Assembly (NCBI RefSeq): GCF_004010195.1
Contig: NC_057718.1
Span: 58,607,868-58,652,528 of the forward strand
Direction of reading: 5' to 3'
Source: Chiloscyllium plagiosum
Lineage: Eukaryota
Length of the DNA: 44,661 bases
Shown: one piece after another, positions 10,847-41,866 of the stretch
Position numbering within the stretch: position 1 is the first letter of the stretch
Layout of the letters: every line of letters begins with the position of its first letter
The notes under the pieces: model-generated
The model's database searches: none
Seen by the model: only the letters and a program-made list of their open reading frames with translations
Told to the model about the DNA's origin: nothing
Program-made: the position numbers and the translations under genes

Positions 10847-11027
10847 GGAGAAAGTGAGGTCTGCAGATGCTGGAGATCAGAGCTGGAAATGTGTTGCTGG
10901 AAAAGCGCAGCAGGTCAGGCAGCATCCAGGGAACAGGAGAAGGGCTTATGCCCGAAACGTCGATTCTCCTATTCCCTGGATGCTGCCTGACCTGCTGCGC
11001 TTTTCCAGCAACACATTTCCAGCTCTG
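10847..11027. mobile_element. Palindromic Penelope-derived mini-element (family A pLTR ends, inverted)
   Basis: 64-nt arms 10878-10941 and 10964-11027 with 1 mismatch; loop GGGCTTATGCCCGAAACGTCGA. Confidence 0.85.
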
Positions 11028-11369
11028 GATTTGTTATCAGTCAATTGTGTTTAACTAAGTTGCTTGCATTTATAGATGGAGTGACAGTGAATAAAATGAG
11101 GGTCATGATTATATGGTGTGTTATCGTATTTTTACTCGACCTGTATAGACATATTATGGCATACTTCTGGAGCAGGTGGGACTTGAATCCGGACATCAGG
11201 ATACAAGATGTGATCTGTGACATTTGAACTGCTGCAACAGCACACTCATAATTAATGAACAATGTCGTACAGGATTTATCAATGACAAACAAAATTTACA
11301 AACTAATCTCTCTGTATTCAGTTGGGTCCTTACTTTATAAATATCTCAAAGAGCATGATTCAATTTTAT

Positions 11370-11885
11370 GATAGACATCCCCAGGGATCAGTGTTCAGGC
11401 CTCTGCTCCTTCCAATGTATGTTGACCATTGAAATCTTGATTTACAGGGTATCATTTCAAAAGTTACAATTGGCACAAAACTTGGAAGTATCATAAATCA
11501 TGAGGAAGATGGTATAGAATCTTAAAAATAATTTAGTAAAATGGATAGACAAGTAACAGAGGGCATTCAATGCAGGAAGGTAAGAAATTATTCAATTTTG
11601 GGAGGATGAGCATAGAGAAATAAAACAAAAATGAAAGGAAATTTCTAAAGAAGGCACAGGAACAGAGAGAGAGAGAGGGAGAGACTAATGAATATATGTA
11701 TGTAAGTCTTTGATGATGGTAGGATGTGTTGAGAGAGATTAATAAAGCATGTAGCATCCAGACTTCATCAACTGGAACATAGAAAACAAAATGAAGGGGC
11801 TTACATTAAACCTTTACAAAACAGTGGTTCAAAATCAGCTGGAGTAATGCATCTTGTTCTCTGGGCAACAACGTTTGGGAAACTT
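11370..11885 (+). mobile_element. Old CR1 RT fragment
   Basis: CCCCAGGGATCAGTGTT (PQGSV) followed by degenerate downstream CR1 RT motifs. Confidence 0.6.
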
Positions 11886-12175
11886 GAGGCCTCAAATCAC
11901 TGTTATCTGGTTCTCATGCTTTTGCCAATAGAAACAGATTCTCTCTAAGTACACTGTTCTGAGGCACTGCAGTTTTGAACACTTCAATCTGACCTCCTCT
12001 TAATTTTCTCTTATCCAAAGAGAACAGCTCCAGATCCTCTATTGTATTCACAAACTGAAGTTCCTTATCCATGGATTCATTCTTGGGAGTCTTTTCTGCA
12101 TGCTCTCTGATGTCTCCATAGCCTTCCCCAACTGTGATTCACAGAATTGGGCACAATCTAATTGATATTAAACCA
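11885..12175 (-). mobile_element. Old CR1 C-terminal fragment
   Basis: Minus strand reads LELFSLDKRKLRGGQIEVFK. Confidence 0.55.
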
Positions 12176-15100
12176 AATGTTTTACACGTGTTTATTGTGT
12201 TAACTTATTTAGTTTTCATTATGTATATGAATTAGATTAATAAGAAATAAAGTATCTTTCTTAATGTTCACATCAACATAACTTCCCAATACCAATACAC
12301 AAACAAAATTTAAATCTGTCATTCTTTCCTTGCATTGAGTTGGAGGACTGTCAGGAGTTCCGTTGCTGAGAAAAGGGCCACTGTTCGATTTTCATTGGTT
12401 ACTTGGGAATAAAGCATAAGGTATTAGTATCATAATACTATTGAGTTTAGCTTAATCATCTCTTCGTATAATTAATAACTAAGCCCCTCTGAACCACCCT
12501 TTCAATTCATTTCAGTAGGATATTAGGTAATCCACATCACATTGCTGACAGTGCTATGTTAGCAAATGGCCTCTGCTCATTAGATAAAAACTAAACTTAA
12601 TGAAAGCACTCAAATGAAATGGCAAACCTGTTTTTCAATTGAATACTATTACTACTTATTATCTTTGACCTATCATTGATGCTCGGTAAGTTAATAGCTG
12701 CTCCTCACTAAAGTTATCAGTGCTCAGTTGAGAAAAAAAACATTGCAATTGTCAACATTATAGTCACTGTACCTTTTCAATTTCTGAGACAATGGAATTA
12801 AATAATTTATCATTAGTGAAAGAAAATCCACTTTGGTCCAAAATTGCATCAATGTGAAATTTTCCTACAAACGGCAGCAGCACCAGCTTTTCATGTAAGT
12901 GATCATTTTACCAGACAGAAGAAAAAAAACGTGATCCTTCAGAGAGGCACAATCAACTAGAACATAGACGTGAACAGTCAGCTTTAACCTGGAACAATAG
13001 CTGAGGAGGTGGATGGAATTAGTATCAAGATATAAAATTTCAATCCCAGGTCATAGGTAATGGCAGTGGTTGCCCTAGTATCTGACAAAGATAATGGCAG
13101 GTTCAGGAATGTTGAAGGAAACATAAAGCTTATTCATGTCAGTGTATATGTGAAGTCTGGCTCAGTAGTGGGGTTACATTTTCCTTTTGAGATGTGACTC
13201 ATGAGTTAGGAGATTTCTATGCAGTGCAGTTCTGAATCCTGCCCATCACTGCCCACTCACACTGTCTTCATGGTGAGGTGGCAGGATTGGACTGGAATTT
13301 CAGTCATAGTCTCCTGAAAAAGGCCTGTTTTGCTGGGACACTGGCCCAGTTCTGCTATGAATGCTAAGCAGCCATTACCTCTTGATAACAATCTCAATAA
13401 ACCTCTGCGAGCTAAATTCACTGTTAGGTTTTTGAACCACAGCCAAGCATTCATAGTGAGATTCCATTGCACAAATGTGTTCACAAAACTTCCCGATCTG
13501 AATATAGTAAAGGCCTTGAAGTAGTTGTTCAGATTGCCATCTATCCCACTGCCTCAAAACCTGAAAACTACCTGACGTGTCAACCTATGAAAAGATGAAA
13601 ATCCAAGATGCAAATACAAATTAAAATCAGAAAACTAATACTGTTCAATAAGAATTTGGCCTTTATCCATTGGATAAATTAATTTAATATTTTGAAAACC
13701 TTTTCACTTTCACAATTTTGATCAATTTATTCATCACCTTTTCTAAAAAGGAACTCATGATCACTCACTGTATTACAGGCATTTTTTAACTAACAACATG
13801 ATTATAATGTGAAGTTAGCAATCCATTTTACATTTCCCTGTCACAACTCTAGAATAGGCCTCACTCCAGTTCTCAGCTGGTATAAACCACATCTCCGAAT
13901 ACTGACTCGATTAAAAATGGCAGTGGTCCTGACATCACTGACTCAGCAATGGATCAGTCATATTGGGATTGCAACATGCACACGGGAACCTAAACCTCTT
14001 ATTTCTTGCCATCAGAAATATGACATGATGGGATTAGGGGAGGAGCTCTGAAATTGGGTCCTGCCTGCAAGTCTTTTGGGTCCTGCCTATGCAGGTCTTT
14101 TGTGCTCTGGGATCACAAGATTTGGCACCATGTCTGTGAATGACACCATCATAGGGTGGCACATGAACGAGGAGGTGCTGGGAAATGTTTATATTTTTGT
14201 CGAGAGAGAGACTTTGAAGGTAAAGATATAAAGGTATCACAGCAGTACAAAGATAAAGCCCGCAGTTGTTGGTGTGTATTCTTTCCCTTTGGATAATTAG
14301 AAGCCAAACCAACAGATCAATAGATAGCAGTAAAAATGTTTGCATTTTTCCAGAAAAAAAGGTTCAGATTATAACACAACCTAAAAGTGGAGCTGCTGAA
14401 CATTTGCAATATGTTCAGGATTAATACATCATTAGTATACAATATTTCTTGGCTGCAAAAGTGCAAAGTATTTTACAATTATTGTGATGTTGCTGTAGAT
14501 GAGATGAGATGGTTGTTTTCATACTAAACAGCTGCAGCATTTAGAAGATTTATAGCACATTTTACTGTTGAAGTGGGCCCTTCATTTGTGACCATGATGT
14601 AAAGAGATGTGATTTAGTGCAGTGCAAATTTTCCTTCTTCATAGACAGACTAACGGAGATGGAGTTCCCCTGACAGCTACATTTTAATGAATTATTTGAT
14701 GAACTCGGTCTCAATGATAATTTTGACCTAAGGATTTGACAAAAATACTGTTATTAAACCTACCTAATTAATTTCCAATCTGATATAAATTTTGGTGACA
14801 GTGGGTTGAAAAACTACTAAACGTTTTTTTAATGGTAGAAATGTCATCACATGATATAAAACTTAACTGTGATAATTAACCTCCTGCCTGCACAATTATA
14901 GCATTTACTTGACTGCACTCCACTCTTAGAATTTATTGGCTTGCGAATGTTATTCCAAGGGAGCACATTTTCTCTGAACCTTAGAAAAATATGATTTAAT
15001 GTTGGGTGACAATAATCCATTAGTAATAAGGAAATCACAAATTAAAACATTTTAGCACAGTCCAATTAAAGACCATTTTTGTGTGTGTTATGACTGGACT

Positions 15101-15605
15101 ATAACCTTCTGCATCTGTTTGGTTGAAAATTGTTCTTTTGGGCATGTAGTGCTGTTTCTCTATCCTGAAATATAGTTCTGGCTGCACTAATATGCATGTG
15201 AAAACATTCAGAATTGGCCAAATCAACACAATGAGAGTTGTAACAAGACTATGGCTTTAAGAGGTATGTTTTGTCTTGGTTTTACTTAATGAAGAAGTGT
15301 GAGTGGTACCGAGCAACCTACTTAGAGCTATTAGAGTAAACAGTTTATTAGGTCTTGGATTTTTTTTAAAGTAAGAACAATAGAAGCAGCCTGAATGTAT
15401 GGGGCAAGTTCCCATGGAATCAGGATTTTTAGTTTTCAGTTTTCGACAGTTGTTGCTAGGTTCTTGAAGCTGGGTTTGGAAGCGGCAGTACCTCTCTCCT
15501 TGCTATTCTTCCGGTCAACGTTTTCTCTTGACGCTTTATTTGTTTATGCTAGAATTGCATGTGAGACAATCTGTTGAACTAAATTTGTCTTTTGCCAAGG
15601 GTGTA

Positions 15606-16407
15606 CATAGAACACAGAACAGTACAGCACAGAACAGGCCCTTCAGCCCACGATGTTGTGCTGACCATTGATCCTCATGTGAGGTAAACCTAATGTACAA
15701 ACCCTCAAATTTCTGTGACCATATGCATGTCCAGCAGTCTCTTATTATATCCCCAATGACCCCGCTTCCACAACTGCTGCTGGCAATGCATTCCATGCTC
15801 TCACAACTCTCTGTGTAAAGATCCAATGAAAGAAGTCCGAGCTTAGTCAACCTCTCTTCGTAAGATAAGCCCTCCATTCCAGGCAGCATCCTGGTAAACC
15901 TCCTCTGAACCCTCTCCAAAGCATCCACATCTTTCCTATAATAGGGCGACCAGAACTGGACACAGTATTCCAAGTGCGGTCTAACCAAAGTTATATAGAG
16001 CTGCAACAAGATCTCACTGCTTTTAAACTCAATCCCCCTGTTAATGAAAGCCATAGCACCATATGCTTTCTTAACAACCCTGTCCACTTGGGTGGCAATT
16101 TTAAGGGATCTATGTACCTGCACACCAAGATCCCGCTGTTCCTCCACACTGCCAAGAATCCTGTCTTTAATCCTGTACTCAACTTTCAAGTTCGACCTTC
16201 CAAAATGCATCACTTCGCATTTATTCTGGTTGAACTCCATCTGCCACCTCTCAGCCCATCTCTGCATTCTGTCATTGTCACGCTGCAACCTACAACAGTC
16301 CTCTATACTGTCAACAGCACCTGCAACCTTTGTGTCGTATGCAAACTTGCTAACCCATCCTTCAATCTCCTCATCCAAGTCATTAATAAAAATTACAAAG
16401 AGTAGAG
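15606..16407 (-). mobile_element. CR1/HER1 LINE, 5'-truncated with an internal deletion near 15820
   Basis: ORF 15536-16378(-) SKFAYDTK...LQRD...WQMEFN...LVRPHLEYCVQFWSPY...RRFTRMLPG; TTCTATG-like tail. Confidence 0.92.
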
Positions 16408-16529
16408 GCTTTATTTGCTGATGCTAGAATTGTGGGATGTTACCATATTAGAACAGTTAGTGTTTAGTAGTAAATTAATCTATTATTCTGTTAAGTTTTC
16501 CAGTACAGTTATCCAATCCCTTCTTCCTC

Positions 16530-16680
16530 ATGGGTATATGAATAGGAAGGGTTTGGAGGGATGTGGGCCAGGTGCTGACAGGTGGGACTAGGTTGGGTTG
16601 GGATATCTGGTCGGCATGGACGGATTGGACCGAAGGGTCTGTTTCCATGCTGTACATCTCTATGACTCTATGATTCTATG
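16530..16680 (+). mobile_element. HER1 3' end inserted in the solo LTR
   Basis: GGACCGAAGGGTCTGTTTCCATGCTGTACATCTCTATGACTCTATGATTCTATG. Confidence 0.88.
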
Positions 16681-17255: not shown

Positions 17256-17339
17256 CTCAGCCTTTGTCTTATTTTGTGCTGCTAATTAATAGGAAATGGA
17301 ATAATCAGTAAAATCTGGATGCCTGATTATTCCAGCCCT

Positions 17340-17467
17340 CCTGAAGAAGGGCTTATGCATGAAACGTCGATTCTCCTGCTCTTCGGATGCTGCCTGGCCT
17401 ACTGTGTTTTTCCAGCACCACATTTTTAAACTCTGGTCTCCAGCATCTGCAATCCTCACTTACTCCT
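17340..17467 (+). mobile_element. Penelope family A pLTR 3' end starting at the hammerhead core
   Basis: CTGAAGAAGGGCTTATGCATGAAACGTCGATTCTCCTG...CTCCAGCATCTGCAATCCTCAC. Confidence 0.8.
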
Positions 17468-17495
17468 ATTCCAGCTCTATCCCAGCTGCCATCAT

Positions 17496-19990
17496 GATTT
17501 GATTTGATTTGATTTATTATTGTCAAGTGCATCATATCATAACATACAAAGACACAAAGATCATAGGGTGATTGGACAGAGCCTAGGATACAAAGTTATG
17601 GCTGCAAAGAAGGTGCACAAAAAAAAAGATCAACATTAGATTTGAAATTTGAGAGGTCCATTCAGAAGTCTATTAACAATGGGGAAGAAGCTGCTCTTGA
17701 ACCCGTTAGTGTGTATGTTTAAGCTTTTGTATCTTCTATCTGAGAGAAGAGGTGGGAAGAGATAATGACCAGAGTGGGAGGGGTCTTTGATGATGGCTGC
17801 GTTTCTGTGGCAGCGAGAAGTGTAGATGGAGTCAATGGATGGAAGGTTGGCTTGCGTGATGGTCTGGGCTGTGATCACAACATTCTGTAGTTTCTTACAG
17901 TCCTGGGCAGAGCAGTTGCTGATAGAATGCTTTCTCTGGTGCATGTGTAAAATTTTGGTGAGGGTCCTTCTGGACATGTTGACATTCCTTACATTCTCGA
18001 GGGAGAAGAGGTGTTGTTTTGCCGTCTTGAGCATTGCATCAATACGGGTGGTCCAGGATAGATTGTTTGTGATCTCACTCCTAGGAACTTGACTGTCTCA
18101 ACCATCTCCACCTCAGCTCCATTGATGTAGGTAGGGGCGTGTCCTCCTACTTCCTGAAGTTGATGATCAGCTCTTTAGTTTTGCTGACATTGAAGGAGAG
18201 ATTGTTATTTTTGCATCACGTCACCAAGCATTCTATCTCCTTCCTGTATTCTGTCTCATCATTGTTTGATATCCAGCCTACAACAGTAGCGCAGTTGGAG
18301 TTTGGACGAAATTTGGCCAGAAGGTCATGAGTCTATAAGGAGCTGGGGTGCTGAGTACGCTGCCTTGCAGGGCACCGGTGTTGATTGCCGTGGAGGAGAT
18401 GCTATTTCCTATCCTCACTTACAGTTGCGGTCTGTGTGTCAGGCAGTCAAGGATCCAGTTGCAAAGGTTGGAGCAAAGGATTTAGGTCTGAGTTTGGAGA
18501 TTAGTTTGGTTGGGATTATCGTGTTGAAGGAGTTATGGTCAATGAGTAGAAGTCTGATGTAGGTATCCTTATTAACCAGTTGAGTGTAGGGCTAGGGAGT
18601 TGATGTCTGCCATGGACCTGTTGCACTAGTAGGCAAATTGCAAGAGACCAAGGCTGACTGGGAGGCTAGAGTTGACATGAGCTATGGCTGTCAAGAATGT
18701 GTGCTGGAAAAGCACAAATGGTCAGGCAGCATCCAAGGAGCAGGAAAATCAACATTTCGGGCACAAGCCCTTCTTCAGGAATAAAGCTGGGAGCCTTGGG
18801 GGTGGAGAGATAAATGGGAGGGAGTGGGGTTGAGGAGAAGGCAGCAGAGAGTACAATAGGTGGTTGGAGGTTGGGGTAAAGGTGATAGGTCAGAGGGGAG
18901 GGTGGTGCAGATAGGTGGGAAGGAAGATGGGCAGATGAGACAGGTCATGAGCTTGAAGATTGGAACTGGGGTAAGATGGGGCGGTGGGAAAATAAGGAAA
19001 CTGATGAAATGCACATTGATGCCATAGGGTTGGAGGATCCCAAGGCAGAAGATGAGGCGTTCTTCCTCCAGGCATTGGAGGGGTAAGGGAGTGGCGGTGG
19101 AGGAGGCCCAGGACCTGAATGTCCTTGGCAAAGTGGAAGGGGGAGTTGAAGTGTTCGGCCACGGGAAGTGGGGTTGAAGCGCTCTGTGAGTAGGCAGCCT
19201 GTCTCCCTAATGTAGAGGAGACCGCATTGCGAGCAAAGGATACAATAAATGATATGTGTGGAAATGCAGGTGAAACTTTGATTGAAGTGGAAGGTTCCTT
19301 TGGGGCCTTGGCTGGAGGTGAGGGGGGAGGTGTGGGTATAGGTTTTACAATTCTTGCTGTAGCAAGGAAGGTGACAGAAGGTGAGGGTGGGTTGTTCAAG
19401 GGGCATGGACCTGACGAGGTATTCACGGAGGGAACGGTGAAAACTGGATAGGGGTGGGGAGGGAAATATTATCTCTAGTGGTGGGGTCTGTTTGTAGGTG
19501 GCAGAAATGGCAGAGGATGATGCGATATTGGTGGGATGAAAGGTGAGGACCAGAGGAGTTTTGTCCTCGTTGCAGTTGGAGGGATAGGGTTCAAGGGCGG
19601 AGGTGCGGGATCTCAAGGCACTTCATAATTATGGAAGTCAGAGCCACTGCATGGTAGTCATTGAAGCACAATGCATGTGTTTTCTTTGGTACTAGGATGA
19701 TGATGGTTGTATTGAAACAGATGGGAGTTCAGATTGTAGCAAACACAGGTTAAAGATGTCCGAGAATACTCCTGCCAACTGGCCCGCACAGAATCTGAGT
19801 GCACAGCTAGGGACTCCATCTGGGTCAGTTGCTTTCTATGGGTTCACTCTCAAGAAAGCCGATCTGACATTTGCAGCAGTGACTGAGGGAACAAATGCAT
19901 CTGGAGCTAAAAGGTGACACCATTTCACTGATCTTCTGCTCAAACTGAACATAAAAAAAATTGAGCGCATCAGGGAAGGATGTAATTTGT
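17496..19990 (-). mobile_element. Rex1/Babar-clade LINE (decayed), split by a Penelope insertion
   Basis: PDALNFFYVQFE, AGILSDIFNL, NDYHAVALTSIIMKCL, CKKLQNVVITAQTIT...IIKDPSHSGHYLF..LLSDRRYKS...FKSSFFP; (AAATC)n tail at 17496-17515. Confidence 0.82.
18696..19612 (-). mobile_element. Penelope-like element family A, 5'-truncated: GIY-YIG C-terminus plus pLTR
   Basis: FTCISTHIIYCILCSQCGLLYIRETG; LEEERLIFCLGILQPYGIN; pLTR with CTGAAGAAGGGCTTGTGCCCGAAATGTT; possible TSD TCAAG (18691-18695 and 19613-19617). Confidence 0.88.
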
Positions 19991-20590: not shown

Positions 20591-20689
20591 TAATGTGCTG
20601 TTCACTCCCACTTCCATCATGTACCCAAACGTGCTTCACACTAAAACATCATCCCAAGGTAAAAAATGATCTATTTGGAAAGAGCTGCT

Positions 20690-22099: not shown

Positions 22100-23316
22100 T
22101 CACCGCAAGGCTCAGTGTTGGGATCACAACTTTTCACTTTATACATTAACGATCTAGATGAAGGAACTGAGAGGATTCTGGCAAAGTTTGGAGATGATAC
22201 AACGATAGAGAGACAGGTAGTACTGAGGAGATGGGGAGGCTGCAGAAGGATTTGGGCAGGTTAGGAGAGTGGGCAAAGAAGTGGCAGATGGTGAACAATG
22301 TGAGAAAGTTTGAGGTCATGCATTTTGTAGGAAGAGGTATGAACTGTTTTCTAAATGTGGAGAAAGTTCAGAAGTCTGAAGTGCAAAGAAACTTGACAGT
22401 TCTAGTCCAGGGCTGAAAATGTGTTGCTAGAAAAGCGCAGCAGGTCAGGCAGCATTCAAGGAACAGGAGAATCGACATTTCAGGCATAAGCCCTTCTTCA
22501 GGAAGAAGGGCTTATGCCCGAAACGGCGATTCTCTTGTTTCTTGGATGCTGCCTGACCTGCTTCGCTTTTCCAGCAACACATTTTCAGCTCTGATCTCCA
22601 GCATCTGCAGCCCTCACTTTCTCTCAAAAAGTTCTAGTCCAGGATTCTCTTAAGATAAACTTGAGTCAGTAGTTAGGAAGACAAATGCAATGGTGACATT
22701 TACGTTGAGAGGACTTCAATATAAAAGTAGGGATATACTTCTGAGGCTCTATAAGGCTCTATTCAGACCACATTTGGAGTATTGAATGCAGTTTTGGGCC
22801 CCATATCTCAGCAAGGATGTACTGGCCCTGGAGCATGTTCAGGGAGGTTCACGAGAATGTTTCTAGGAATGAAAAGCTTAACTTATGAGGAACGTTTGAG
22901 GACTCTGGATCTATGCTGAATGGAGTTTTGAAGCTTAGAAGGATGAGGGGGATTTAATTGAAACTTACACAACACTGAATGGCCTGGACATAATGGATGT
23001 TGGGAAGATGTTTCCATTAGTAGGAGAGACTGGGACTCAAGGGCACAGCCTTGGAATAAAGGGAAGACTTTTTAGAACTTCTTTAGCTAGAGAGTGGTGA
23101 ATCTATGCTATTCGCTGCCACAGAAGGCTTTGGAGGCCAGATCATTGAGTGTATTTAAGACTAAGATAGGTTCTTGATTGTCAAGGGGATCAAGGGATAC
23201 AGGGAAAAAGCGGGAGAATAGGGTTAAGAAACTTATCAGTCATGATTGAATGGCAGAGCAGACTTGATGGGCTGAATGGACTACTTTCTGCTCCTATCTC
23301 CTATGGTCTTATGGTT
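22100..23316 (+). mobile_element. CR1 LINE, 5'-truncated RT plus 3' UTR
   Basis: PQGSVLGSQLFTLYINDLDE, KFGDDT, LQKDLGRLGEWAKKWQM, RPHLEY; tail CTATGGTCTTATGGT. Confidence 0.9.
22412..22629. mobile_element. TSD-flanked palindromic Penelope-derived mini-element with back-to-back hammerhead cores
   Basis: Arms of about 87 nt spanning 22412-22589, centred on CCCTTCTTCAGG|AAGAAGGG; 14-bp TSD AGTTCTAGTCCAGG (22398-22411 and 22630-22643). Confidence 0.92.
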
Positions 23317-25202: not shown

Positions 25203-25750
25203 AAAGTTTGGGAGAAGATTTGTAGCTCGGGTGCTCGCTGTTGTGGTTCTGTTTGCCGAGCTCCCAGATGTGTTGCAGACGTTTTGTCCCCTGTCTAGGT
25301 GACATCCTCAGAGCTTGGGAGCTTCCTATGAAGCGCTTCTGTGATGTTTTCTCCGGCATTTATAGTGATTTGTACCTGCCGCTTCCGGTTGTCAGTTCCA
25401 GCTGTCCGCTGCAGTGGCCGGTATATTGGGTCCAGGTCGATGTGCTTATTGATTGAATCTGTGGATGTGTGCCATGCCTGTAGGAATTCCCTGGCTGTTC
25501 TCTGTTTGGCTTGTCCTATAATAGTAGTGTTGTCCCAGTCGAACTCATGTTGCTTGTCATCTGAGTGTGTGGCTACTAAGAATAGCTGGTCATGTCGTTT
25601 CGTGGCTAGTTGGAGTTCATGGATGCGGATCGTTAGCTGTCTTCCTGTTTGTCCTATGTAGTGTTTTGTGCAGTCCTTGCATGGGATTTTGTACACTACA
25701 TTGGTTTTGTTCATGCTGGGTATGGGGTCCTTCATCCTGGTGAGTTGTTG
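25203..25750 (-). mobile_element. Penelope-like element family B: GIY-YIG C-terminus plus pLTR
   Basis: ORF 25295-25735(-) NVVYKIPCKDCTKHYIGQTGRQLTIRIHE...FDWDNTTIIG...REFLQAW; degenerate hammerhead at 25278-25311. Confidence 0.92.
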
Positions 25751-27899: not shown

Positions 27900-28320
27900 C
27901 CTCTATGACATGTCAATCATTGGTTTCCTCCATTGCCACAGTGAATCAGACTGCAAATTGGAGGAACTTCATCTTCTGCCTGGGCAGCCTACAGCCTGGA
28001 GGACTCAACATTGAGTTCTCCAATTTCAGATAACCTTCCCACCTCACCCTAACTTCCTTTTCAGCCCTGACTTCTCCCTTCCATCTCTCCAGCTGACCCC
28101 TCCTTCCAGCTATCAACCGGATTTGTTCCTCCTATCAACCTACCAGGTATTCACCTGTCACCATCTCTCTACTCTGCCCCTTACCCACCTATAACCCTTC
28201 CCCTTTATCTGCAACTCCCCCTACCCCCACCTCCATTCCTGAAGAAGGGTTATACCTGAAATCTTGAACTTCTGATGCTGTCTGTCTTACTGTGCTCTTC
28301 CAGCCTCCTGCTTGCCTGCT
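27900..28320 (+). mobile_element. Penelope family A-related 3' fragment
   Basis: IFCLGSLQPGGLNIEFSNF, then a C-rich pLTR and CTGAAGAAGGGTTATACCTGAAA. Confidence 0.8.
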
Positions 28321-28342
28321 TTGAATTACATGAGGAGCTGGA

Positions 28343-28469
28343 TTGGTGCTGTAAGTGGACAATGAAGAAGGTTATCTAAGATTACAAAGAGATCTTAGTC
28401 AATTTGGTGCTGTAAGTGGACAATGAAGAAGGTTATCTAAGATTACAAAGAGATCTTAGTCAATTTGGT
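28343..28469. repeat. Perfect 61-bp tandem duplication at the LINE 5' end
   Basis: 28343-28403 is identical to 28404-28464, with TTGGT microhomology. Confidence 0.95.
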
Positions 28470-29316
28470 CAGTTGGCTGAAGAGTGGTAAATGGAGTTTA
28501 TTTTGGATAAATGTAAGGTATTACATTTTGGTAAAACAAACAAAGATAAGACTTATACACTTCAAAGTAGGGGCTTGGGCAGTGTTGTAGAATGGAGAGA
28601 CGCAGGGATTCAGGTACATCATTCTTTTGAAGTTTGCATTACATCTAGATAAGGTGGTTAAGAAGGCATTTAGCTTGCTTCACCTCATTGCTTAGACCTT
28701 GGAATAGAGGAGGTGGGACATTTCAGTTGAGGTTGTGCAGGATATTGGTGAAGCCTCTTCTGGGGTACCGTGCCCAGTTATGGTCACCCTGTTATAGGAA
28801 GGATATTATTAATCTGGAGAAGGTTCAGAAGAGATTTACCAGGATGTTGCCTAGAATGGAGGGTTTGAGTTATAAAGAGAGACTGGATAAGCAGGGACTT
28901 TTTTTACTGGAGCATAGGAGGTTGAGAGGTGACCTTGTAAAGGGTTATGAAGTCATGAGGGATATAGATAAGGTGAGTGGCAGGTGTCTTTTCACTAGGG
29001 CGAGGGATTTCTAAACTAGGGGGCATGTTTTTAAGGTCAGAGAAAGTTTTAAAAAAGACACGAGAGGCAATTTCTTTACACAGAGAATGGTTTGTGTGTG
29101 GAATGAATTTTCAGTGGAAGTGCTGGATGCAGCTAGAGTTTCAACTTTTAAAAGACATTTAGCTAAGTAAGTGAATAAGAAGTGTTTGGAATGATATGGA
29201 TCAAGCACAGGCAGGTGGAGCTAGTTTATTAGTTTAGGATTATGGTCTGCATGGACGGTTGGATCAAAGAGTCTTTATCTGTGCTATATGACTGTACAAC
29301 TCTATAACTCTATGAC
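28343..29316 (+). mobile_element. CR1/HER1 LINE, 5'-truncated
   Basis: LVKPLLGYRAQLWSPCYRKDIINLEKVQKRFTRMLPRMEGLSYKERL...RRLRGDL; tail AACTCTATAACTCTATGACT. Confidence 0.9.
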
Positions 29317-29384
29317 TGTTAGCAGAAAGATAAGTAAAACATCTAAATTCATCTCTATTTGAAGCCACTCATGAACAGGACTGA

Positions 29385-30330
29385 AACAGACACAGAAATT
29401 GCTGAAAAACTCAGTATGCCTGGCAGCATTTGTGGAGAAAAATGGAGCTATGTTTTCAAGCCTGTTACTTTTCACCAGAAATGAGGGCAATTCAAAGGTT
29501 TGGAAGCAAGGTGGGGAAGGTGAGAAACCAAATGGAAGGTTTACAACAGTGTGAAGTACACTGCTGATTAAATAGCAAAGGATTTCATGATGTCACAGCC
29601 AAAAGAATAGTAATGGGTTAAGAAAATAAATAAAAGCTAAATTTAAATGAGATGTGAATGGCATATTAGCAGCTATCTGAAGTGGCAGTAACAGGATTAA
29701 AAAAGAAGAGAAATCTAATCAAGCTGATTGGGGCAGAGGTTATGACCTGAAATTATTAAACTCAGTGTTAAATTGAAAACTCTGTAAAATGCCAAGTTGA
29801 ATAACAATGTAGTGTTCCGTTCCATTAGAACATGGCAGCCAATCAAGTACAGAAAGGTTTAGGTATGAAAAAGAAACATAATTGAAGTGGCAAATGAAAG
29901 AAAGGAAGATCAGGGTCCTGACTGCAGACTGAACAAATATGCTTTTCCATGCAGTGCTCCAATCTACATTTGGTCTCCCTAGTAGAGAAGAAGCCACATT
30001 GTGAGTCATAACACTTTATACAAAATTGAAACAAGTAAATGTGAATCATTATTCGTATGAAAGCAGTGTTCAGAACCTTGGATTGTGAGAAAGGATGAGG
30101 TAAAAGAACAAGTGCTGCATATTTTGCACTTGCACGGAAAGAAGTCACAGTGAAGTGCTGAATGAGGAGTGGATCAGGGAGTCACAGAAAGAAAGGATGT
30201 TTTGGAATGTTGAAAGGGGACAGTAGGAGAAGATGTAATTGTTGGTGGCATTATACTACAAGTGGAGAAATGGCAAAGTGCGATCTGTTGAATGCACAGC
30301 CCGGTGGATGCATTCTTCTTTGATGAAATT
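29385..30330 (-). mobile_element. Old Penelope-like element (GIY-YIG remnant plus pLTR)
   Basis: SQCGFFSTRETKCRLEHCMEKHICSV; IVIQLGILQSFQFNTEFNNF, homologous to the 18696-19612 C-terminus. Confidence 0.72.
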
Positions 30331-31499: not shown

Positions 31500-31885
31500 C
31501 TCAACATTTTTCCCTGGAGTATCGGAAGGGCGATCTTAGAGAAGTTAATAAAATCATGAGAGGCATGGACAGTGTGAATAACCAAGGTCCTTGTCCCAGG
31601 GTAGGGAAGTCCAAAACTAGCAGGCATAGGTTTAAGGTGAGAGAGGAAAGATTTAAAAAAGGCCTGAGAGTTAACCTTTTCAAGCAGAGGATGGTGCATA
31701 TGTGAAACGAGCTGCCAGAATAAGTGGTGGAGGCAGATACATTTAAAAGGCACCTGGAATAGTTTATGAATAGGAAAGGCTTATGGTGCAAATGCTGACA
31801 AATGGAAGTATATCAGTTTGGGACATCTGGTCCATGTAGATGAGTTGGACCAAAGAGTCTGTTTCCATGCGGTATGACTCCATGA
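31500..31885 (+). mobile_element. HER1 3' fragment nested in LINE family 2
   Basis: GDLREVNKIMRGMD...RHRFKVREERFK; tail GGTATGACTCCATG. Confidence 0.85.
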
Positions 31886-32728
31886 AGTAGTGGAAGATGT
31901 TTGAGCCTAGGATACAACCCTGAGGAACTCCTGCTGTGATGTATCAAGCCTGAGACAACTGATTTCCAACAACCAGAAGCATATTCCTTCATACCAGGTA
32001 TCACTCCAAGCCCTGGAAAGTTTTCCCTGTATTCCCATTGACTCCAGTTTTGCTTGGGCTCCTGTACGTAATACCCAGTCAAATGCTAACTTTGTGTTAA
32101 GAGCAGTCACTCTCACCTTCCCTCTGGATTTTAACTCTTCTGCCCATGTTTAGACCAAGAGTGTAATGAGGTCAGGAACTGACAGCCCCTGCTAGAACTG
32201 AAACTGAGTGTCGATGCGTAGGTTGTTCCTATGCAAATGTAGCTCGATAGCACTGTTGATGACACCTTCTATCACTTTATTGATGATCAAGAATATGCTG
32301 CTAGGGTTAAAATTGGCTGTGCTGGATTAGTCCTGCTATATGTGCCCAGGACATATCTGGGTAATTTTTGACATTCTTAGTTACCTGCTAGTATTGTTGT
32401 TGTGTTGGAGTAGCTTGCTGATGGGCACAGCTAGTTCTGTAGTCTTCAATATTATTGTCAGAATGTTGTCATGGCCCACAGCCTTTGCGGTATTCAATGC
32501 TTTTGATCATTTCTTGATATCACATTGAGTGAATCAAATGGGTTGAACACTACCATCTGTGATACTGGGAGACCTCAGGACAAGGCTGAGATAGATCATC
32601 CACTTGACGTTTTGATAAAAGTGGATGCAAATATTTCAGCCTTGCCTTTTGCACTAATTTGCAAGGTTAACCCATCATTGGGGAGAGGGATATTAGTGCA
32701 GCCTCTCCTTTTGGTTAGTTATTTAACT

Positions 32729-33669
32729 TAGCGAGTTTTGAGAAGATTTGTAGCTCAGGTGGAGGTTCTGCATGTAGGTTTGCTCGCTGAGCTGGAAGGT
32801 TCATTTCCCGACGTTTCGTCACCCTACTAGGTAACATCTTCAGTGGGCTTCCGGGCGAAGCAATCATCCTAACATCCACAAAAGAAGCTGCATCAGAATA
32901 TTATTTCAATGAGCCACCTCACATTGCAGCACAGAGGAACTAGGCAGAGCAGAGGAAAATTACCTATACCGAGTATTCAAAAAGAATGGGTACCCAATGA
33001 ACACAGTCCACCACTTTCTCAGCAACAAACCCAAGCAAGCAGACAAAACATGTCCAGAAACCTTAGCCACTCTCCCCTACATCAAAGACATCTTGGAAAT
33101 GACTGTCAGACTACTCAGACCCTTTGGCACCATGGTAGCACACAAACCCACCAACACACTGAAACAGTAGCTAATGAACTTGAAAGACCATATACAGACA
33201 ACAAGCAAAGCTAATATCTTTTACACAATACCGTGCAAGAACTATAACAAACACTACATTGGACAAACAAGCAGAAAACCAGCCACCAGTATACATGAAC
33301 ATCAACTAGCCACAAAATGACATGACCCTCTCCCACTAGTATTTTTATACACAGATGAAGAAGGACACCACTTCAACTAGGACAACACATCTATCCTAGG
33401 ACAAGCCAAACAGAAACACGCACGAGAATTCCTCGAAGCAAGGCATTCCAACCGGAACTCTATCAATAAACAAATTGAGTTAGATCCCATCTACCACCCC
33501 TGAGAAAAAGAACAGGAAATGACAGCACCACAGGAAATTGCATCACCATCAGAAATGACAAAGAAACCCAAACATATAAATAGAAAGCAGGAATCATCAG
33601 CAGTGCTTCGCCCGGAGGCCCACAACATCTGAAAATGAACCTTCCTGGTCAGCGAGCAAACCTACATGC
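32729..33669 (+). mobile_element. Penelope-like element family B with an inverted 5' pLTR
   Basis: 12-bp TSD AGTTATTTAACT (32717-32728 and 33670-33681); IFYTIPCKNYNKHYIGQTSRK GIY-YIG; 32770-32862 is an inverted copy of 33600-33669. Confidence 0.92.
32810..32843 (-). ncRNA. Minimal hammerhead ribozyme core (PLE family B)
   Basis: CUGAAGA-U-GUUACC(UAGUAG)GGUGAC-GAAAC-GUC. Confidence 0.75.
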
Positions 33670-34284
33670 AGTTATTTAACTATCCTTTACCATTCACAAC
33701 TGGTTGGGCAAGATTGCGGAGTTTCAATTTGACCCATTAGTTATGGATTTAAATTTGTCTCATCTATTGCGCGTTGATTCCATTGTTTGACCCGTGTTTT
33801 AACTTCATGCATTATCATTTCATTTCATTTCTCAGCACACTGCTGTTGGCATGCCATCTTGCACTCTTCACTGAACCAAGGTTGATTTCTTGATTTGATG
33901 GTGATGGTAGTATGGGGAAATGCCTGGTCATAAGTTAACAGACTTTTGTTGAATCCACGTCCATTCCTATTGGTGGCCAAAGGCAGCCCATGGATGCCCA
34001 GTTTTGAGTTGCTACCTCTATTGCAAATCAATTTAGGACATTGAGACTTTTACACTACATGATGGAGACTGGACTATGCTTGCATAAGCATCGTGTTAAT
34101 GTCCATCTAAGTGATATTACTCCTTTAAGTGATGTTCAACATGGAGGAGTGTTGATTTACCAGCCGAGCGCGGTGCGGTAGCCAGTTGTGATAATTAGCA
34201 CAAGGTTTCCTTGCCCGTGTTTGGCCTGGTAGCATGAGATTTCACGAGGTCCATGAAATTTAATGGACTTAATGTTGAGGACTT

Positions 34285-35455: not shown

Positions 35456-35536
35456 AAAAATCACATGACACCAGGTTATAGTCCAATGGGTTTATTGAAA
35501 ACACTAACTTTTGGAGAGCTGCACCTTCCTCAGGTG
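35456..35536 (-). mobile_element. Penelope-like pLTR end (family C) with degenerate hammerhead
   Basis: Minus strand CACCTGAGGAAGGTGCAGCTCTCCAAAAGTTA...AATAAACCCATTGGACTATAACCTGGTG. Confidence 0.55.
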
Positions 35537-35776
35537 TGAACAGCATGCCATTCCTGATGATGCAATTGAAAAGTCATCAGCTTCCGTTCTTTTTGTCTTG
35601 TTGCCCATAAGATTGCAACCATAGTTTGAAATGCTGGGAGGCGTGCATGCAAACAACATACAACTTATAGCCTGGAGAAGCTTTTCATTTGAGAAACCTG
35701 CTGTCAGTTGATAATGTTGCACCTATAGGTCAGCTACCAACTCATGTGCTGGTCAAACAGTAAAATCTGCATCACA

Positions 35777-36276
35777 NNNNNNNNNNNNNNNNNNNNNNNN
35801 NNNNNNNNNNNNNNNNNNNNNNNNNNNNNNNNNNNNNNNNNNNNNNNNNNNNNNNNNNNNNNNNNNNNNNNNNNNNNNNNNNNNNNNNNNNNNNNNNNNN
35901 NNNNNNNNNNNNNNNNNNNNNNNNNNNNNNNNNNNNNNNNNNNNNNNNNNNNNNNNNNNNNNNNNNNNNNNNNNNNNNNNNNNNNNNNNNNNNNNNNNNN
36001 NNNNNNNNNNNNNNNNNNNNNNNNNNNNNNNNNNNNNNNNNNNNNNNNNNNNNNNNNNNNNNNNNNNNNNNNNNNNNNNNNNNNNNNNNNNNNNNNNNNN
36101 NNNNNNNNNNNNNNNNNNNNNNNNNNNNNNNNNNNNNNNNNNNNNNNNNNNNNNNNNNNNNNNNNNNNNNNNNNNNNNNNNNNNNNNNNNNNNNNNNNNN
36201 NNNNNNNNNNNNNNNNNNNNNNNNNNNNNNNNNNNNNNNNNNNNNNNNNNNNNNNNNNNNNNNNNNNNNNNNNNNN
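35777..36276. other. Assembly gap (500 N, probably a scaffold join of arbitrary size)
   Basis: Run of N. Confidence 1.
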
Positions 36277-36374
36277 TCTCCATGGAAGAGGCAAATCCCT
36301 TGCCTTGTGCCATAGAGTTAAACAAGGAAAAGCACTGACCTCAGATAAAACTGCAAAATGTGACAGATGCATGT

Positions 36375-38445
36375 TACTTTCAACCCTGGCTCAGTAAAGA
36401 GTGCAGGAGGGTGACTTAAGTGCAGTACCCAGCATAATAAAACATGAGGTGTCAACCTGAAGCTACAGCATAGGACTACTTCTGTGCAAAACAGCATAAG
36501 CATCAAGTGATAGACAGAATGAAGTGATTTCACAACCAATGGATCAGACCCAAGCTGTGCAATCCTGCTTCATCCAGTGGCAATTGGTGGTAGAAATTTA
36601 AAAACTCACTTGAAGAGGGGCTCCACAATTACTCATCCACAGTAATGAGAGAGTCCAGCAGATTAGTACAAAAGATCAGATGGATATGTTTGCAATTCTG
36701 CCAAAGTGTCGAGTCTACAATCCACCTTGGCCTTCTTAGATACGCCAGGCTTCAGTCAATACAATTTTCTCCATGTGATATCAAGGAAGGACTGAAGGCT
36801 TAGGATGCCACAAAAGCTATTGGCTCTGACAACATCCTGGCTAGAGTACTGAAGACTTTTGATCTCGAACTTGCTGCTCCCTATTTAAGCTGTTATTATC
36901 AACGATGATGTCAAGCAGCACGTGCTTAGCAACAACTTGCTCACTGACACTCTGTTCTGTTTCCACTAAGTCCACTCAGCTCCTGACTTCATTACAGCCT
37001 TGCTTCAAACATGGACAAAGAGGTTGAGGCGAGAGTGATTGACCTTGACCTTGACATTACATTTGACAGAATCCTGGGAAATAAAATAGAGTCTGGGAAT
37101 CAAGGGAAAAAAAGTACTTGGTTTGAGTCATACCTAGCACATAGCAAGTTGATTGTGGTTATTGGAAGTCTGTTATCTCAGCTGTAGAACATCGCTGCAG
37201 GAATTCTTCAAGGTTGTGTGCTAGACCTAACCATCTTCAAAAGTTTCATCAATGACCACCCTTTATTGTGAAGCCAGAAGTGGAGAGTTTCACTGATTGC
37301 ACAATGTTCAGCACCATTCGTGACTCCTCAGATACTGAAGCAGTTCATGTCAAAATGCAGCAAGACCTGGACAACATCCAGGTTTGGACAGATAAGCAGC
37401 AATAGCATTTGTGCCACACAGCGCGATGCAATTATTATCTGTAGCAAGAGAGAACCTAACTGTCATTCTCTGGAATTCAACAGCACTACCATCACTAAAT
37501 CCTCCATTATCAAAACATTAACAACATTCTGGGAGTAAACATTGACTAGAAACTGAACTGACCTAACCATATAAGTACTGTGGCTACAAGAGCAGATCAG
37601 CAGTCATAAATTGGGCAGTGGCTCAACTCCTGACTCTCCAAATCCTGTCCACTATTGATAAGTAACAAATCAGGAGTGTAATGGAATACTACCCACTTAC
37701 CTGAATGAGTGCAGTTCCAACAACATTCAAAAGGTTAGACACCATCCAGGACAAAACAGCCTGCTTCATTGTCATCCACAAAGGTTCATTCCTTCCACCA
37801 CTGATGCTCAGTGGTAGTAATGTATACCATCTACAAGATGTAGAATTCACCAACGCATTCTGGATAGAACCTTCCAAACCTATGGCCATGACCTTCTAGA
37901 AGTGCAAGAGCAGCAAAATAAGTGGGAACACCACCATTTGTAAGTTGGTCTCCAAGCCACATAGCATCCTGACTTGGGGGTATATCATTATTCTTTCACT
38001 AGTACTGGGTCAAAATCATTGAACATGCTCTTAAGCTCATTGTCATCCACAAAGGTTCATTCCTTCCACCACTGATGCTCAGTGGTAGTAATGTATACCA
38101 TTTACAAGATGTAGAATTCACCAGCGCATTCTGGATAGAACCTTCCAAACCTATGGCCATGACCTTCTAGAAGTGCAAGAGCAGCAGAATAAGTGGGAAC
38201 ACCACCATTTGTAAGTTGGTCTCCAAGCCACACAGCATCCTGACTTGGGGGTATATCATTATTCTTTCACTAGTACTGGGTCAAAATCATTGAACATGCT
38301 CTTAAGCATCATTATGAACTACCAACAGTAGATAAACTGCAATGCTTCAATCAGGCAGTTGACTACCATCTTCTCAAGGACAATTAGTGATGACCAATAA
38401 TTGCTGGCCCATCCAACAAAGCCCAAATCCCCTCAATGAATTAGA
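36375..38445 (+). mobile_element. LINE family 2, second copy (RT half, decayed)
   Basis: QPWLSKECRR, DNILARVLKT, HSAPDFITAL, AGILQGCVL, MQQDLDNIQVW, RLDTIQDKTACFI; 3' tail CTCAAGGACAATTAG...AATAATTGCTGGCC. Confidence 0.85.
37766..38307. repeat. 271-bp tandem duplication
   Basis: 37766-38036 vs 38037-38307; four substitutions found by eye. Confidence 0.95.
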
Positions 38446-38661
38446 AAAATACAGAAAGTATCTTAAATGTGGCTATGTAATTTCTAATCTAATTTTCTAA
38501 TGACATGTCCACCTGATTTTATTTTCTGGTAATTACTGCATTAAAATAATTGTTTCATATTACTGCCATTTTGCTTGTGCTGCCTGAGATCTTTATCACT
38601 TAGCCATTTTTTGTCTTTAATTTACATGGAATATTTCACTCCTTAATATATGTTCCCTGAT

Positions 38662-38922
38662 TATTTAGTTCTGAATTCCCGCTTATGCATTCTAATTGTG
38701 TGCTTTTTTAAACTCTCCTAATTTGTTTTAGTGCTCTCCTTGGGATTCGTGTACTCGTTGTTTATCTTTATCTTTTCTGCATTTTTTCCCATATTTAGTT
38801 CTGAATTCCCGCTTATGCATTCTAATTGTGTGCTTTTTTTAAACTCTCCTAATTTGTTTTAGTGCTCTCCTTGGGATTCGTGTACTCGTTGTTTATTTTT
38901 ATCTTTTCTGCATTTTTTCCCA
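38662..38922. repeat. 130-bp tandem duplication
   Basis: 38662-38791 vs 38792-38922; one extra T and one substitution. Confidence 0.95.
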
Positions 38923-40559
38923 ATGTTTTCACTCATTCACCATATACCATTGTTGTTTATTTATTCTTGCTTTGAGAGCAATATATTTCTCTGAACTCTG
39001 TTGAACACTAGTTTGAATGCTTCCCATTGCATTTCATATCATTGTTTGCCAAAAATGTTATTAATGATACTTTTTCAAATTTCATTAAGCTGATCAATTG
39101 CTAGAAAGAAGTAAACAGCTACTTTGATCATCTATATTCATACATGTCATGTCTAATTTTGGTTCTTCTGTCACTTTGTCAGACATTGATCACAGCACTG
39201 GTAATAAGCCTTGACCCATACAATTCATAAAAGGCATTTGTCAATGGTAAGCACAGATATAACACATTGTCACAATAAATTTTGTTCCTAATGAGAACAA
39301 GTTGTAGTAATTACCATCATCTCAGTCACTGAGCCCCAGGCGTATTTTATAGTGTTGTCTGAATGATTATGTAACTCATTTTAGCAACTGTAATTCTGGG
39401 AAGTATGTCAATATTTTTCAATATATCATAGATACATGTTTGATATGCCAAACATTTGTTTAATAGATGAAGTAAGAGTTTCATGGAATATTGAAATGCT
39501 TTGAATTAAAGTTGAAGAAAGATGAATAATACAAAGCTGTCAAAAGGTGATGAATTGCTAATGTGTTATTGCTGAAGATCTATTTATGGCAATTAATCTA
39601 GGAATAATTAGGTTCTTTGTTTTTTGACACCTCCGATGTAAGCATGACTTGTCATCCAGAGTTTAATGTATCCAAATGGCCTTGAATTCACAATGTGATC
39701 AAGTCAAATTTGTGACAGATATTCACAATGTGGAATGGCAGATAGAAGTTACCTCCTGTTGATATTTTATCAACAACAAGAGGAAATCAGATGAAACTTG
39801 TAGAAGGAAGGAAGTAGGGTTGGCATGGGAGCTGGTAGGAGGTAGAACTGGAAGGAGGTAAAGCAGAGCTTTTCACATTACTCCAAGAGGGAGAGAAATT
39901 TAGACAGAGTGGGTAAAATGTCCAGATTAAAAGCTTGTGAAGGCAACAGAACACCAGCAATGGAAATTGGTTGAACGTGTTTGAAATTTTCTGATTGGTC
40001 TATAGTTTCACATAATTAATGCAGAAACCTATCAGAAATGTGATGCAGGAATATTAAATTCACTGTCTACCTCCCCTCCAGTCCAACATAACAGCACACA
40101 GGAAGACATCAGGAGTTCTACCAAAACTGATATGGAACAACTGCCAGATATATTCCTGCTTCCATTTTCCTACTTTAACAATGGTAGATAATGAGGGTCC
40201 CTTTTGGAGAGGTGGTGCACTGCAATAGAATATTTAAAACAAGTTCACCTCATATAATTGGGAATCAGATTTAAACCAACTTCTGCTGTTTCCAAGGATG
40301 TGGAAAAACTGGAATTGAAAGAGAAGTGGGAGCTTTTGCTCCAGATGTTGGGTACTTTGATAACACTGCTTGTGGTTGTGGAGATGAATGAGCAGTACCT
40401 TTCACCTCACCCCTAAGTGAAGTGTTTAGCCTTCCTTCTGCTGGTCACAACACCCCCAAACTTCAATCTGACATCCATGATCATAGCTGTCCTCTGTTGC
40501 TCTTAACCTAACAAAGTACAAATAACCAATATTTAAATAGTCATTTAGTAGTGCAGAAC

Positions 40560-40892
40560 TTGAGTATTGCTGAAAAAGGTTGCTAATTTGTTGAAGCTTG
40601 TCATCTTGCATTCATCAGGACAATTCATAAGAATACCAATTCAAAAGAAAAAAAAAATCACACTTATGAGGTGACAGGGCTGATTGATTGGCAAGGTGCA
40701 CTCTGATTGGAAAATACATTGCCATGAAGAATGTGTTCATTAATGGGTGCTTACTACATGGGTGCTAACTGACATCATTACTTTTTTTCTCATGTAGCAC
40801 AAATATTGGTATTTCTTGTAAATTGTCCTGATGAGTACAAGGCAAAAAGAAAAACCCTTTGACAACATGTGTCCTTTTTTTCAGCAATAACC
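40560..40892. mobile_element. Inverted pair of hammerhead-like pLTR ends (putative PLE family D)
   Basis: Minus ATTGGTATTCTTATGAATTGTCCTGATGAATGCAAGATGACAAGCTT...TTTTTCAGCAATA vs plus ATTGGTATTTCTTGTAAATTGTCCTGATGAGTACAAGG...TTTTTCAGCAATA. Confidence 0.65.
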
Positions 40893-41230
40893 AGTATTTC
40901 TGAATTAAGTAGAGTTCCTTAAGCAAGATTTTATAAACGTTCACTCCACAAACTGTGAAAATAGCATGGACCCTCCAGGGACTAGAATTCTTGAATATTG
41001 GCAGCACAGGTAATTCCTTTTCTTTCCTGTTCCTCAAGTTAAACTGTATCTCAGAAAAATTAAGATCATGGTGAAACTACAGCACAGAAGGTGTTGCATT
41101 TCCCACATTTATCCTAAATTCCAATGACTGCGTGTTTCTTTTTCAAAATGTTTTATTTAACTTTTTCCATTGTCTTTAAATGAAGATCAATATGTATCAT
41201 CCCCACCTTTGTAAATTGAATCATGTTGTG

Positions 41231-41349
41231 GGGGCTTATGCCCGAAACGTCGATTCTCCTGTTCCTTGGATGCTGCTTGACCTGCTGCGCTTTTCCAGCA
41301 ACACATTTTCAGCTCTGATCTCCAGCATCTGCAGTCCTCACTTTCGCCT
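41231..41349 (+). mobile_element. Penelope family A pLTR 3' end, truncated inside the hammerhead
   Basis: Starts GGGCTTATGCCCGAAACGTCG and is nearly identical to 41745-41860. Confidence 0.9.
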
Positions 41350-41570
41350 GTGAAAACAAAAGCCTATTTCATACTCCCTAGGTCCCAGGAACTAGCATTT
41401 CATTATTTGAACAAATAACATCTCCTCTTAGGTACAGAAAAGTTGGACAAACAATGTTACCTCTTCTTATCAAGCTATCAACTAAGGTGTAACTATTCAC
41501 TTAACAATCCGAGAAATGCAACGCAATTAAGAACAAATGTTTCTTTCAGAGGTAAAATGAACAACTTCAC

Positions 41571-41866
41571 CGCCTTCCTAACCTGCAATCATCTTCCTGA
41601 CCTCTCCGCCCCCACCCCACTCCGGCCTATCACCCTCATCTTGACCTCCCTCCACCTATCGCATTTCCAAAGCCCCTCCCCCAAGTCCCTCCTCCCTTCC
41701 CTTTATCTTAGCCTGCTGGACACAGTTTCCTCATTCCTGAAGAAGGGCTTATGCCCGAAACGTCGATTCTCCTGTTCCTTGGATGCTGCCTGACCTGCTG
41801 CGCATTTCCAGCAACACATTTTCAGCTCTGATCTCCAGCATCTGCAGCCCTCACTTTCTCTCAAAG
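41571..41866 (+). mobile_element. Non-coding Penelope family A pLTR insertion
   Basis: 8-bp TSD AACTTCAC (41563-41570 and 41867-41874); C-rich body, hammerhead core and the shared 3' end. Confidence 0.9.
41737..41764 (+). ncRNA. Minimal hammerhead ribozyme core (PLE family A), intact consensus
   Basis: CUGAAGA-A-GGGC(UUAU)GCCC-GAAAC-GUC; palindromic ACGU stem III; stem I weak. Confidence 0.75.

Follow-up and report, generated by a model that had tools for sequence, protein, structure and literature searches.

Hammerhead motifs in a bamboo shark genomic window probably lie in short, 5'-truncated insertions of several Penelope-like families

Minimal type I hammerhead ribozymes are carried in the pseudo-long terminal repeats (pLTRs) of Penelope-like elements, and hammerhead copies are counted in thousands in fish, coelacanth, and frog (PMC4209133; here and below, statements on cited work refer to the portions of those papers that were accessible). 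In endonuclease-containing (EN+) Penelope elements, an inverted pLTR, a tail on one end, and a target-site duplication form the published insertion pattern (PMC3846280; PMC8557442), pLTRs contain the first codons (PMC3846280), and a CX2-5CxxC linker before the endonuclease is a Neptune feature (PMC8557442). In the anole Poseidon element PAc, reverse transcription starts from two internal sites bounding the tail, with cutting and extension of each of the two target strands; the template is mainly uncleaved RNA, cleavage by the hammerhead requires protein, and the accessible part of that study reports no RNA sequencing ends at the hammerhead site (PMC11167929). Non-LTR retrozymes (LTR, long terminal repeat) are small, non-coding units with type I hammerheads that depend on Penelope machinery and are characterized by tandem repeats, complete hammerheads, and circular RNA (PMC7229834; 10.64898/2026.07.22.740005). 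Here we analyzed a 44,661-nucleotide (nt) stretch of the bamboo shark Chiloscyllium plagiosum (NC_057718.1, positions 58,607,868 to 58,652,528; hereafter the window), in which an original prediction, made by a model from the sequence alone, described a dense set of minimal hammerhead cores. We conclude that these motifs lie, with high probability, in short 5'-truncated insertions of at least five coding-linked Penelope families, likely dead-on-arrival copies made from uncleaved RNA of the element and subsequently decayed.

The window shares with described pLTR hammerheads the arrangement of CUGANGA, one extra nucleotide, stem II, GAAA, palindromic stem III, and a short stem I, as well as the presence of several families per genome, mostly as solo motifs from truncated elements, with opposite-strand pairs 100-700 bp apart (PMC4209133). 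It differs from that description in its shark host, in the U.U of family A stem I, in the very short stem II and possible pseudoknot of family D, and in the pile of 5' ends at the stem I edge. As in EN+ Penelope elements, an inverted 5'-truncated arm, a tail on one end (30-40 bp in the published cases), duplications of ~8-16 bp, and a pLTR with first codons were found, whereas the insertions here are often hairpins of only 180-350 bp without a coding body (PMC3846280; PMC8557442). Family A fits the anole PAc account (PMC11167929), with its frame from ATG 41783 through the tail and its two 3' ends. Unlike the biochemical PAc result, ours is drawn from insertion ends; moreover, in the Neptune-type family A the ATG follows the hammerhead, and the family B1 open reading frame (ORF) stops inside the hammerhead. 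Compared with retrozymes (PMC7229834; 10.64898/2026.07.22.740005), the units here are likewise small and non-coding with type I hammerheads dependent on Penelope machinery, but are solo or inverted, with minimal and often broken cores. The association of hammerheads with Penelope, opposite-strand pairs, and high copy number are already published, and these copies are likely dead leftovers and not a new ribozyme system. A literature search, covering few subscription papers, found nothing on shark Penelope hammerheads, on a 5'-end pile at stem I, or on a pseudoknotted pLTR hammerhead. The value lies in scale: a genome with so many copies lets the role of the pLTR hammerhead be tested by counting insertion ends, with ends at the stem I edge marking the template start and ends at the GUC bond expected to mark cleavage.

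All 13 listed hammerhead sites were confirmed at the given position and strand by reading back the window sequence. These sites correspond to 11 insertions, to which we added a twelfth (family F), and 7 of the 13 belong to family A. Besides family F (~29380-30140, -), the coreless arms at 10848-10941 (-) and 33604-33671 (+) had been missed. Where at least four families had been proposed, we found at least seven: three Neptune-type (A, E, and F), two Poseidon-type (B1 and B2), and C and D without a coding link. Upstream of five of the motif types (A, B1, B2, E, and F) are GIY-YIG or reverse transcriptase (RT) remnants whose matches are proteins carrying both RVT_1 and GIY-YIG, in agreement with the predicted pLTR hammerheads of several Penelope-like families, and no full ORF is present in the window.

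The family A fragment upstream of 18778(-) had 722 relatives at E<=0.001 in a HMMER search; a word-indexed protein search gave none. Eight of these relatives were scanned, and all six long ones contain RVT_1 and GIY-YIG, several of them below the Pfam cut-off. The CX2-5CxxC linker occurs in 146/150 relatives and is degenerate in the window, and the same protein set matches the family E (E 3e-8) and family F (E 1e-8) fragments. Because of this linker, A, E, and F are called Neptune-type, an assignment by motif and not by tree. The relatives of B1 and B2 mostly lack the cysteine linker (1/9 have it), and these two families are therefore called Poseidon-type on the same basis. Among named proteins, those most similar to the ORF upstream of 25311(-) come from Chiloscyllium, Hemiscyllium, and Rhincodon (72-90% identity), and B1 and B2 are 88% and 59% identical, respectively, to one bamboo-shark protein with RT and endonuclease. 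A Pfam scan directly recognized none of the five decayed endonuclease fragments. In B1, the ORF stop lies inside the hammerhead, and the last codons (25290-25311, -) overlap the first catalytic box and stem II. Two shark proteins have the same terminal peptide with Thr for the Ser of the window, which implies that the B1 parent would have had the first stem I pair. Shark relatives end in TEDVT or TDEVS, matching the variation at free position 7. Separately, predicted shark kinase and nucleotidase isoforms (P0004 and P0005) terminate in Poseidon endonuclease sequence, an annotated exonization.

The insertions follow the published Penelope pattern (Table 1). Target-site duplications of 8-16 bp were found at 7/12 insertions (score >=8), compared with 5/300 random pairs. 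The four inverted pairs, belonging to three families, all have a duplication, and in each a 30-35 nt tail is present on one arm and the other arm ends before the tail. Family D, which has no coding match in the window, shares this inverted, tailed, and duplicated architecture. The 3' ends of family A lie at two places ~30 nt apart, near 41830 and at 41860, and the frame from the conserved ATG at 41783 continues through the tail in the main family A subfamily. In the B2 pair, the long arm lost exactly the hammerhead core by deletion (33604-33640, +), and the short inverted arm retains it.

The ends of family A were examined further in public contigs matching the 601-bp stretch 41420-42020, of which 92,975 came from run X1 and 77,584 from run X9 (another organism). 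The summed contig depth, which is not a copy number, was 10^6-10^7 across the element and <30 on the left flank, consistent with the very large Penelope-like population that had been proposed. Depth climbed ~fourfold at 41735. Loose ends piled at 41733/41734 (321+251 contigs in X1 and 361 in X9) and at 41860 (1101 contigs in X1, running into unrelated flank, and 1195 in X9). The 5' pile is thus located 4 nt before the core, at the first base of stem I and not at the cut site. The common unit delimited by these two piles is thus ~128 bp long; it begins with the first stem I base, finishes where the tail finishes, and contains the scissile bond 41764/41765. Since copies retain sequence on both sides of this bond, most templates would have been uncut at GUC.

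YYANWYY is an initiator-like consensus. The base of the 5' pile is the A of such a motif in family A, its second subfamily, E, and F, and a TTTATC box is located 35-36 nt before the core in three of these four subfamilies. Position 41733, which fits the initiator-like motif, could be a transcription start; against this, the metagenome motifs described below lack a sharp promoter signal, and the ATT at this position is the preferred cut of the anole endonuclease. In the mechanism that we propose by analogy with the anole element (PMC11167929), the element protein would nick both target strands and prime reverse transcription from two positions within the RNA, shortly downstream of the hammerhead. 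Two priming sites would yield one arm with a tail and one without, and priming at the sites nearest the RNA 5' end would give a cDNA of ~128 nt to the transcript start, leaving a stub headed by the hammerhead. Hammerhead function likely belonged to the parent elements, whether in dimer form or aided by protein, and not to these solo copies.

Several observations weigh against this account. No duplication was found at 5/12 insertions, and tblastn with 157 proteins detected no coding remnant near families C and D. Among 62 non-redundant metagenome motifs, no sharp TATA or initiator peak was seen upstream of the core, and the Penelope element of D. virilis has an internal promoter with the hammerhead farther downstream (PMC2377424; PMC4209133). 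Among the matches listed, head-to-tail joints from 41860 to 41736 were present in 3 contigs of X1 and 1 of X9; head-to-tail units therefore occur but are rare. The same matches include joints, their kind not stated, linking 41764 or 41767 to 41733/41734, and the 10941(-) arm begins at the equivalent of 41767; together, these may indicate that a minority of templates was cleaved. Opposite-strand joints tying 41732-41771 to 41826-41832, near the tail-less end, were also observed and possibly derive from an element inserted into its own pLTR. RNA run X21 gave 3107 reads on both strands, 94% of which continue into unlike sequence without a pile of ends. No cleavage ends at GUC were found among these reads; X21 is a poly(A) single-cell library, ~2% of which was read, that is ill-suited to ribozyme ends and misses circles, and a second run, X22, gave 0 reads.

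The pile at 41733 might instead have been set by the element endonuclease cutting or resolving a cDNA intermediate, or by the RT stopping at a folded or protein-bound hammerhead. We consider this possible but the less likely origin. Positions 41733-41735 read ATT, which is also what the anole enzyme cuts most frequently within the pLTR of its own element (PMC11167929), and 5' ends in the window also lie at 41737-41745, around stem II, the only helix predicted to be stable. The pile, however, is sharp and falls on the A of the initiator-like motif kept in four subfamilies, with the TTTATC box in three. Furthermore, this origin would alter one step only, and the copies would stay dead stubs. A broader proposal, which we offer tentatively and with considerable doubt, is that the stubs record Penelope RNA ends. 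Most would be strong-stop-like cDNAs extending from priming sites within the RNA as far as a transcription start that coincides with the first stem I base; a minority of inverted arms, beginning at the scissile bond, would constitute the first trace of a pLTR hammerhead having cleaved in vivo; and family D would be stabilized by a pseudoknot beside a 2-bp stem II.

The original prediction also included retrozyme-like derivatives, that is, a non-autonomous family in which tandem or dimeric hammerheads excise a unit-length RNA that is circularized and copied by the Penelope protein. Abundance is very high, the few head-to-tail joints described above exist, and, according to a 2026 preprint, one chondrichthyan carries non-LTR retrozymes (10.64898/2026.07.22.740005). 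Nevertheless, we find this origin improbable and the claim was not upheld. None of the 10 tandem arrays in the window contains a hammerhead, and therefore no copy here is a retrozyme. In addition, the unit begins 32 nt upstream of the scissile bond and not at the bond, the same end module is joined to GIY-YIG remnants, the copies have their own target-site duplications, and the head-to-tail contigs in X1 number 3 compared with 1101 running into unrelated flank. The lack of RNA ends at GUC in the weak X21 library points in the same direction.

We also considered the folding of solo and inverted copies. In single copies, only stem II was predicted to form (stem I pair probability <=0.01). In the inverted unit at 22.4 kb, the sense core lies inside a predicted hairpin of -152 kcal/mol (z -18.7). 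Antisense or inverted copies had been suggested to supply or block dimer partners. An inverted copy cannot supply one, because reverse-complementing a hammerhead does not give another hammerhead; only blocking stands, as a prediction: the antisense arm cannot be a partner, and the hairpin is predicted to bury the sense core. Inverted stubs would place long double-stranded hairpins in host transcripts. Solo cores could in principle cut host transcripts and shape RNA processing by pairing with a same-strand neighbor, such as core 41737 with the clipped 41251 copy, whose GUC it would attack, the two copies being 505 nt apart with an ACGU palindrome that could pair between them and family A being found in poly(A) RNA. 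We regard this as very improbable: the predicted cross-stem probability in the 41231 x 41737 dimer was 0.00, stem I is weak, minimal hammerheads cleave poorly even as dimers (PMC4209133), and the anole hammerhead cleaves only with protein (PMC11167929).

The two cores described as intact, 41737 and 32843(-), indeed contain complete catalytic boxes, the extra nucleotide, stem II, palindromic stem III, and UH, although their stem I is not intact. In 41737, stem I consists of 2 bp, a U.U, and 1 bp; in 32810-32843(-), where the boxes are intact and stem II has 7 bp, an A.G mismatch occupies the first pair of stem I. The weak stem I is the family A state, common to 7/7 window copies retaining the 3' strand, and no variant of it was found in public contigs among the matches listed. 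Elsewhere, stem I has 4 bp in family C and 5 bp in one copy of family D. The list of decayed or partial cores was correct for the sites that are broken, but two of its entries, 18750(-) and 22472(-), are nearly intact: 18778(-) and 22501(-) keep all catalytic boxes and UH with wobble-compatible changes only. Three more, 10942, 22502, and 41231, are clipped at the 5' junction and not decayed, with an additional U16.1>G in 22502. The proposed CpG-type defects were borne out for family A, in which CpG positions were changed in 7/58 cases compared with 11/293 for other C/G positions (p=0.017).

Conservation of the motif was evaluated by a looser motif scan of metagenomes, which yielded 120 loci of ~3000 estimated. 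A Penelope-like protein match was located within 400 bp at 6/120 loci. Stem I of at least 3 bp was found in 58/99 distinct motifs, compared with 9.9 when 3' strands were swapped. Stems I and II covary (score 0.51 vs 0.13; reached by 0/500 shuffles), a result that applies to metagenome motifs and not to shark consensuses, with relatedness uncontrolled; the unspecified stem II pairs also covary. Because the stem pairs covary in these motifs, the hammerhead motif is a conserved structure. The sequence TCAKT was mildly raised upstream of the metagenome cores (14 in the last 20 nt vs ~2 per 10 nt farther up). The family A pattern had no match in viral or metagenome contigs. One unrelated metagenome motif, L087, has the same stem I as family A, with U.U at the third pair, and U.U at this pair occurs in 6/99 motifs.

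Both family D copies are decayed; they suggest that stem I has 5 bp and stem II 2 bp. In the 40828 copy, the loop II region pairs 7/7, 6 of the pairs being Watson-Crick, with sequence immediately upstream of stem I (40814-40842, +), a match reached by ~1.4% of random 15-mers (post hoc, over ~8 motif types). The other copy (40604-40633, -) shows just 4 consecutive pairs. A loop II pseudoknot is a possible feature of family D, no more than a lead; it is not general among 106 metagenome motifs (6 seen vs 9.6 expected), and pseudoknotted hammerheads with a short stem II are already known (PMC3088659). A family D pattern search gave 8 prokaryote matches and 1 viral match, none with hammerhead context, and family D is therefore considered to be without outside copies. 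CCAAT-like boxes are present upstream in the family D minus arm.

The significance of the sites was evaluated with a structure-aware score (boxes plus stems I, II, and III) against 150 dinucleotide shuffles of the window. Bare CUGANGA..GAAA box pairs number 9 in the window, and since 4.8 per window are already expected in shuffles, box pairs alone are weak evidence. At a structure score of >=4, 8 sites were found; the shuffles averaged 0.38 such sites and never exceeded 3, and all 8 belong to the original list, which thus exceeds chance. A covariance model trained on the 48/101 metagenome motifs whose stem II region is 11-12 nt long, and biased toward the GG..CC/GAAACGU type, detected 8/13 sites at E<0.001, namely the 7 family A sites and 28239 (best E 4e-12). 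Sites 40594(-) and 32843(-) were marginal (E 0.12), 40828 was matched at E 4.3, and no match was obtained at 25278 or 35505. An Rfam search of the window returned no hammerhead and only three chance microRNA matches, on the 10.9-kb hairpin. Scored singly, both family D copies are within the chance range. Despite the common box pairs, the Rfam result, and the two family D copies, the idea that the motifs are chance matches in a repeat-rich window is very improbable, and is refuted for families A, B, and E, in view of the 8 high-scoring sites, the model matches, and the fixed place downstream of GIY-YIG remnants. One additional hammerhead-like candidate at 39572-39600 (+) was dropped because its score (3.8) and model E value (1.6) are within chance.

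Table 1. Penelope-like insertions and their arms, in positions of the window
Feature	Position	Strand	Details
Family A inverted insertion	10845..11025	both	duplication 10829-10844 / 11026-11041
Minus arm of 10845..11025	10848-10941	-	with tail, without core; begins 2 nt past scissile bond
Plus arm of 10845..11025	10938-11027	+	tail-less, with a clipped first box
Family A (second subfamily) stub, core at its start	17339..17466	+	boxes intact 17341-17368, stem II broken; duplication 17328-17339 / 17467-17478
Family A Neptune-type 3' fragment	18696..19622	-	frameshifted linker and GIY-YIG remnant, then near-intact core 18751-18778, two CpG changes
Family A inverted insertion within long interspersed nuclear element (LINE)	22412..22629	both	14-bp duplication 22398-22411 / 22630-22643
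Arms of 22412..22629			minus: no tail, core 22474-22501, boxes intact; plus: tailed, with a clipped first box and U16.1>G
Family B1 Poseidon-type 3' fragment	25203..25748	-	GIY-YIG region; core 25278-25311, G12>A and A2.1>U; 13-bp duplication
Family E Neptune-type fragment	27907..28325	+	core 28239-28265, boxes intact, stem III palindrome lost
Family F Neptune-type fragment	29380..30140	-	heavily decayed core ~29450-29478
Family B2 Poseidon-type inverted insertion	32729..33669	both	12-bp duplication
Arms of 32729..33669			short minus: tail, core 32810-32843; long plus: broken ORF 32859-33500, core deleted near 33623, no tail
Family C decayed core (putative Penelope link)	35505..35533	-	4-bp stem I, stem II 3/5 pairs, G12>A; no coding remnant, no duplication found
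Family D inverted insertion	40535..40885	both	14-bp duplication with 1 mismatch; very short stem II
Arms of 40535..40885			minus: tail, core 40593-40618, A14>C; plus: no tail, core 40828-40860, G12>A, stem III insertion
Family A stub beginning at stem II	41232..41349	+	first box absent, tail present, no duplication found
Family A 3' fragment, best core	41571..41862	+	core 41737-41764, stem I 41733-41736 / 41765-41768, conserved ATG 41783, tail to 41860, 8-bp duplication

Other repeats were also identified in the window. A broken LTR-retrotransposon-like region at 4561-8147 (-) contains integrase core, SH3, and integrase C-terminal domains. Many fragments of LINEs retaining parts of the RT are located at 159-489, 2079-2337, 15536-16423, 22100-23310, 28343-29305, and 31535-31891, one of which received the 22.4-kb Penelope hairpin as an insertion. 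Near-perfect two-copy tandem duplications at 37766-38313 (271 bp), 38662-38922 (131 bp), and 28343-28469 (61 bp) are possibly assembly artifacts or very recent.

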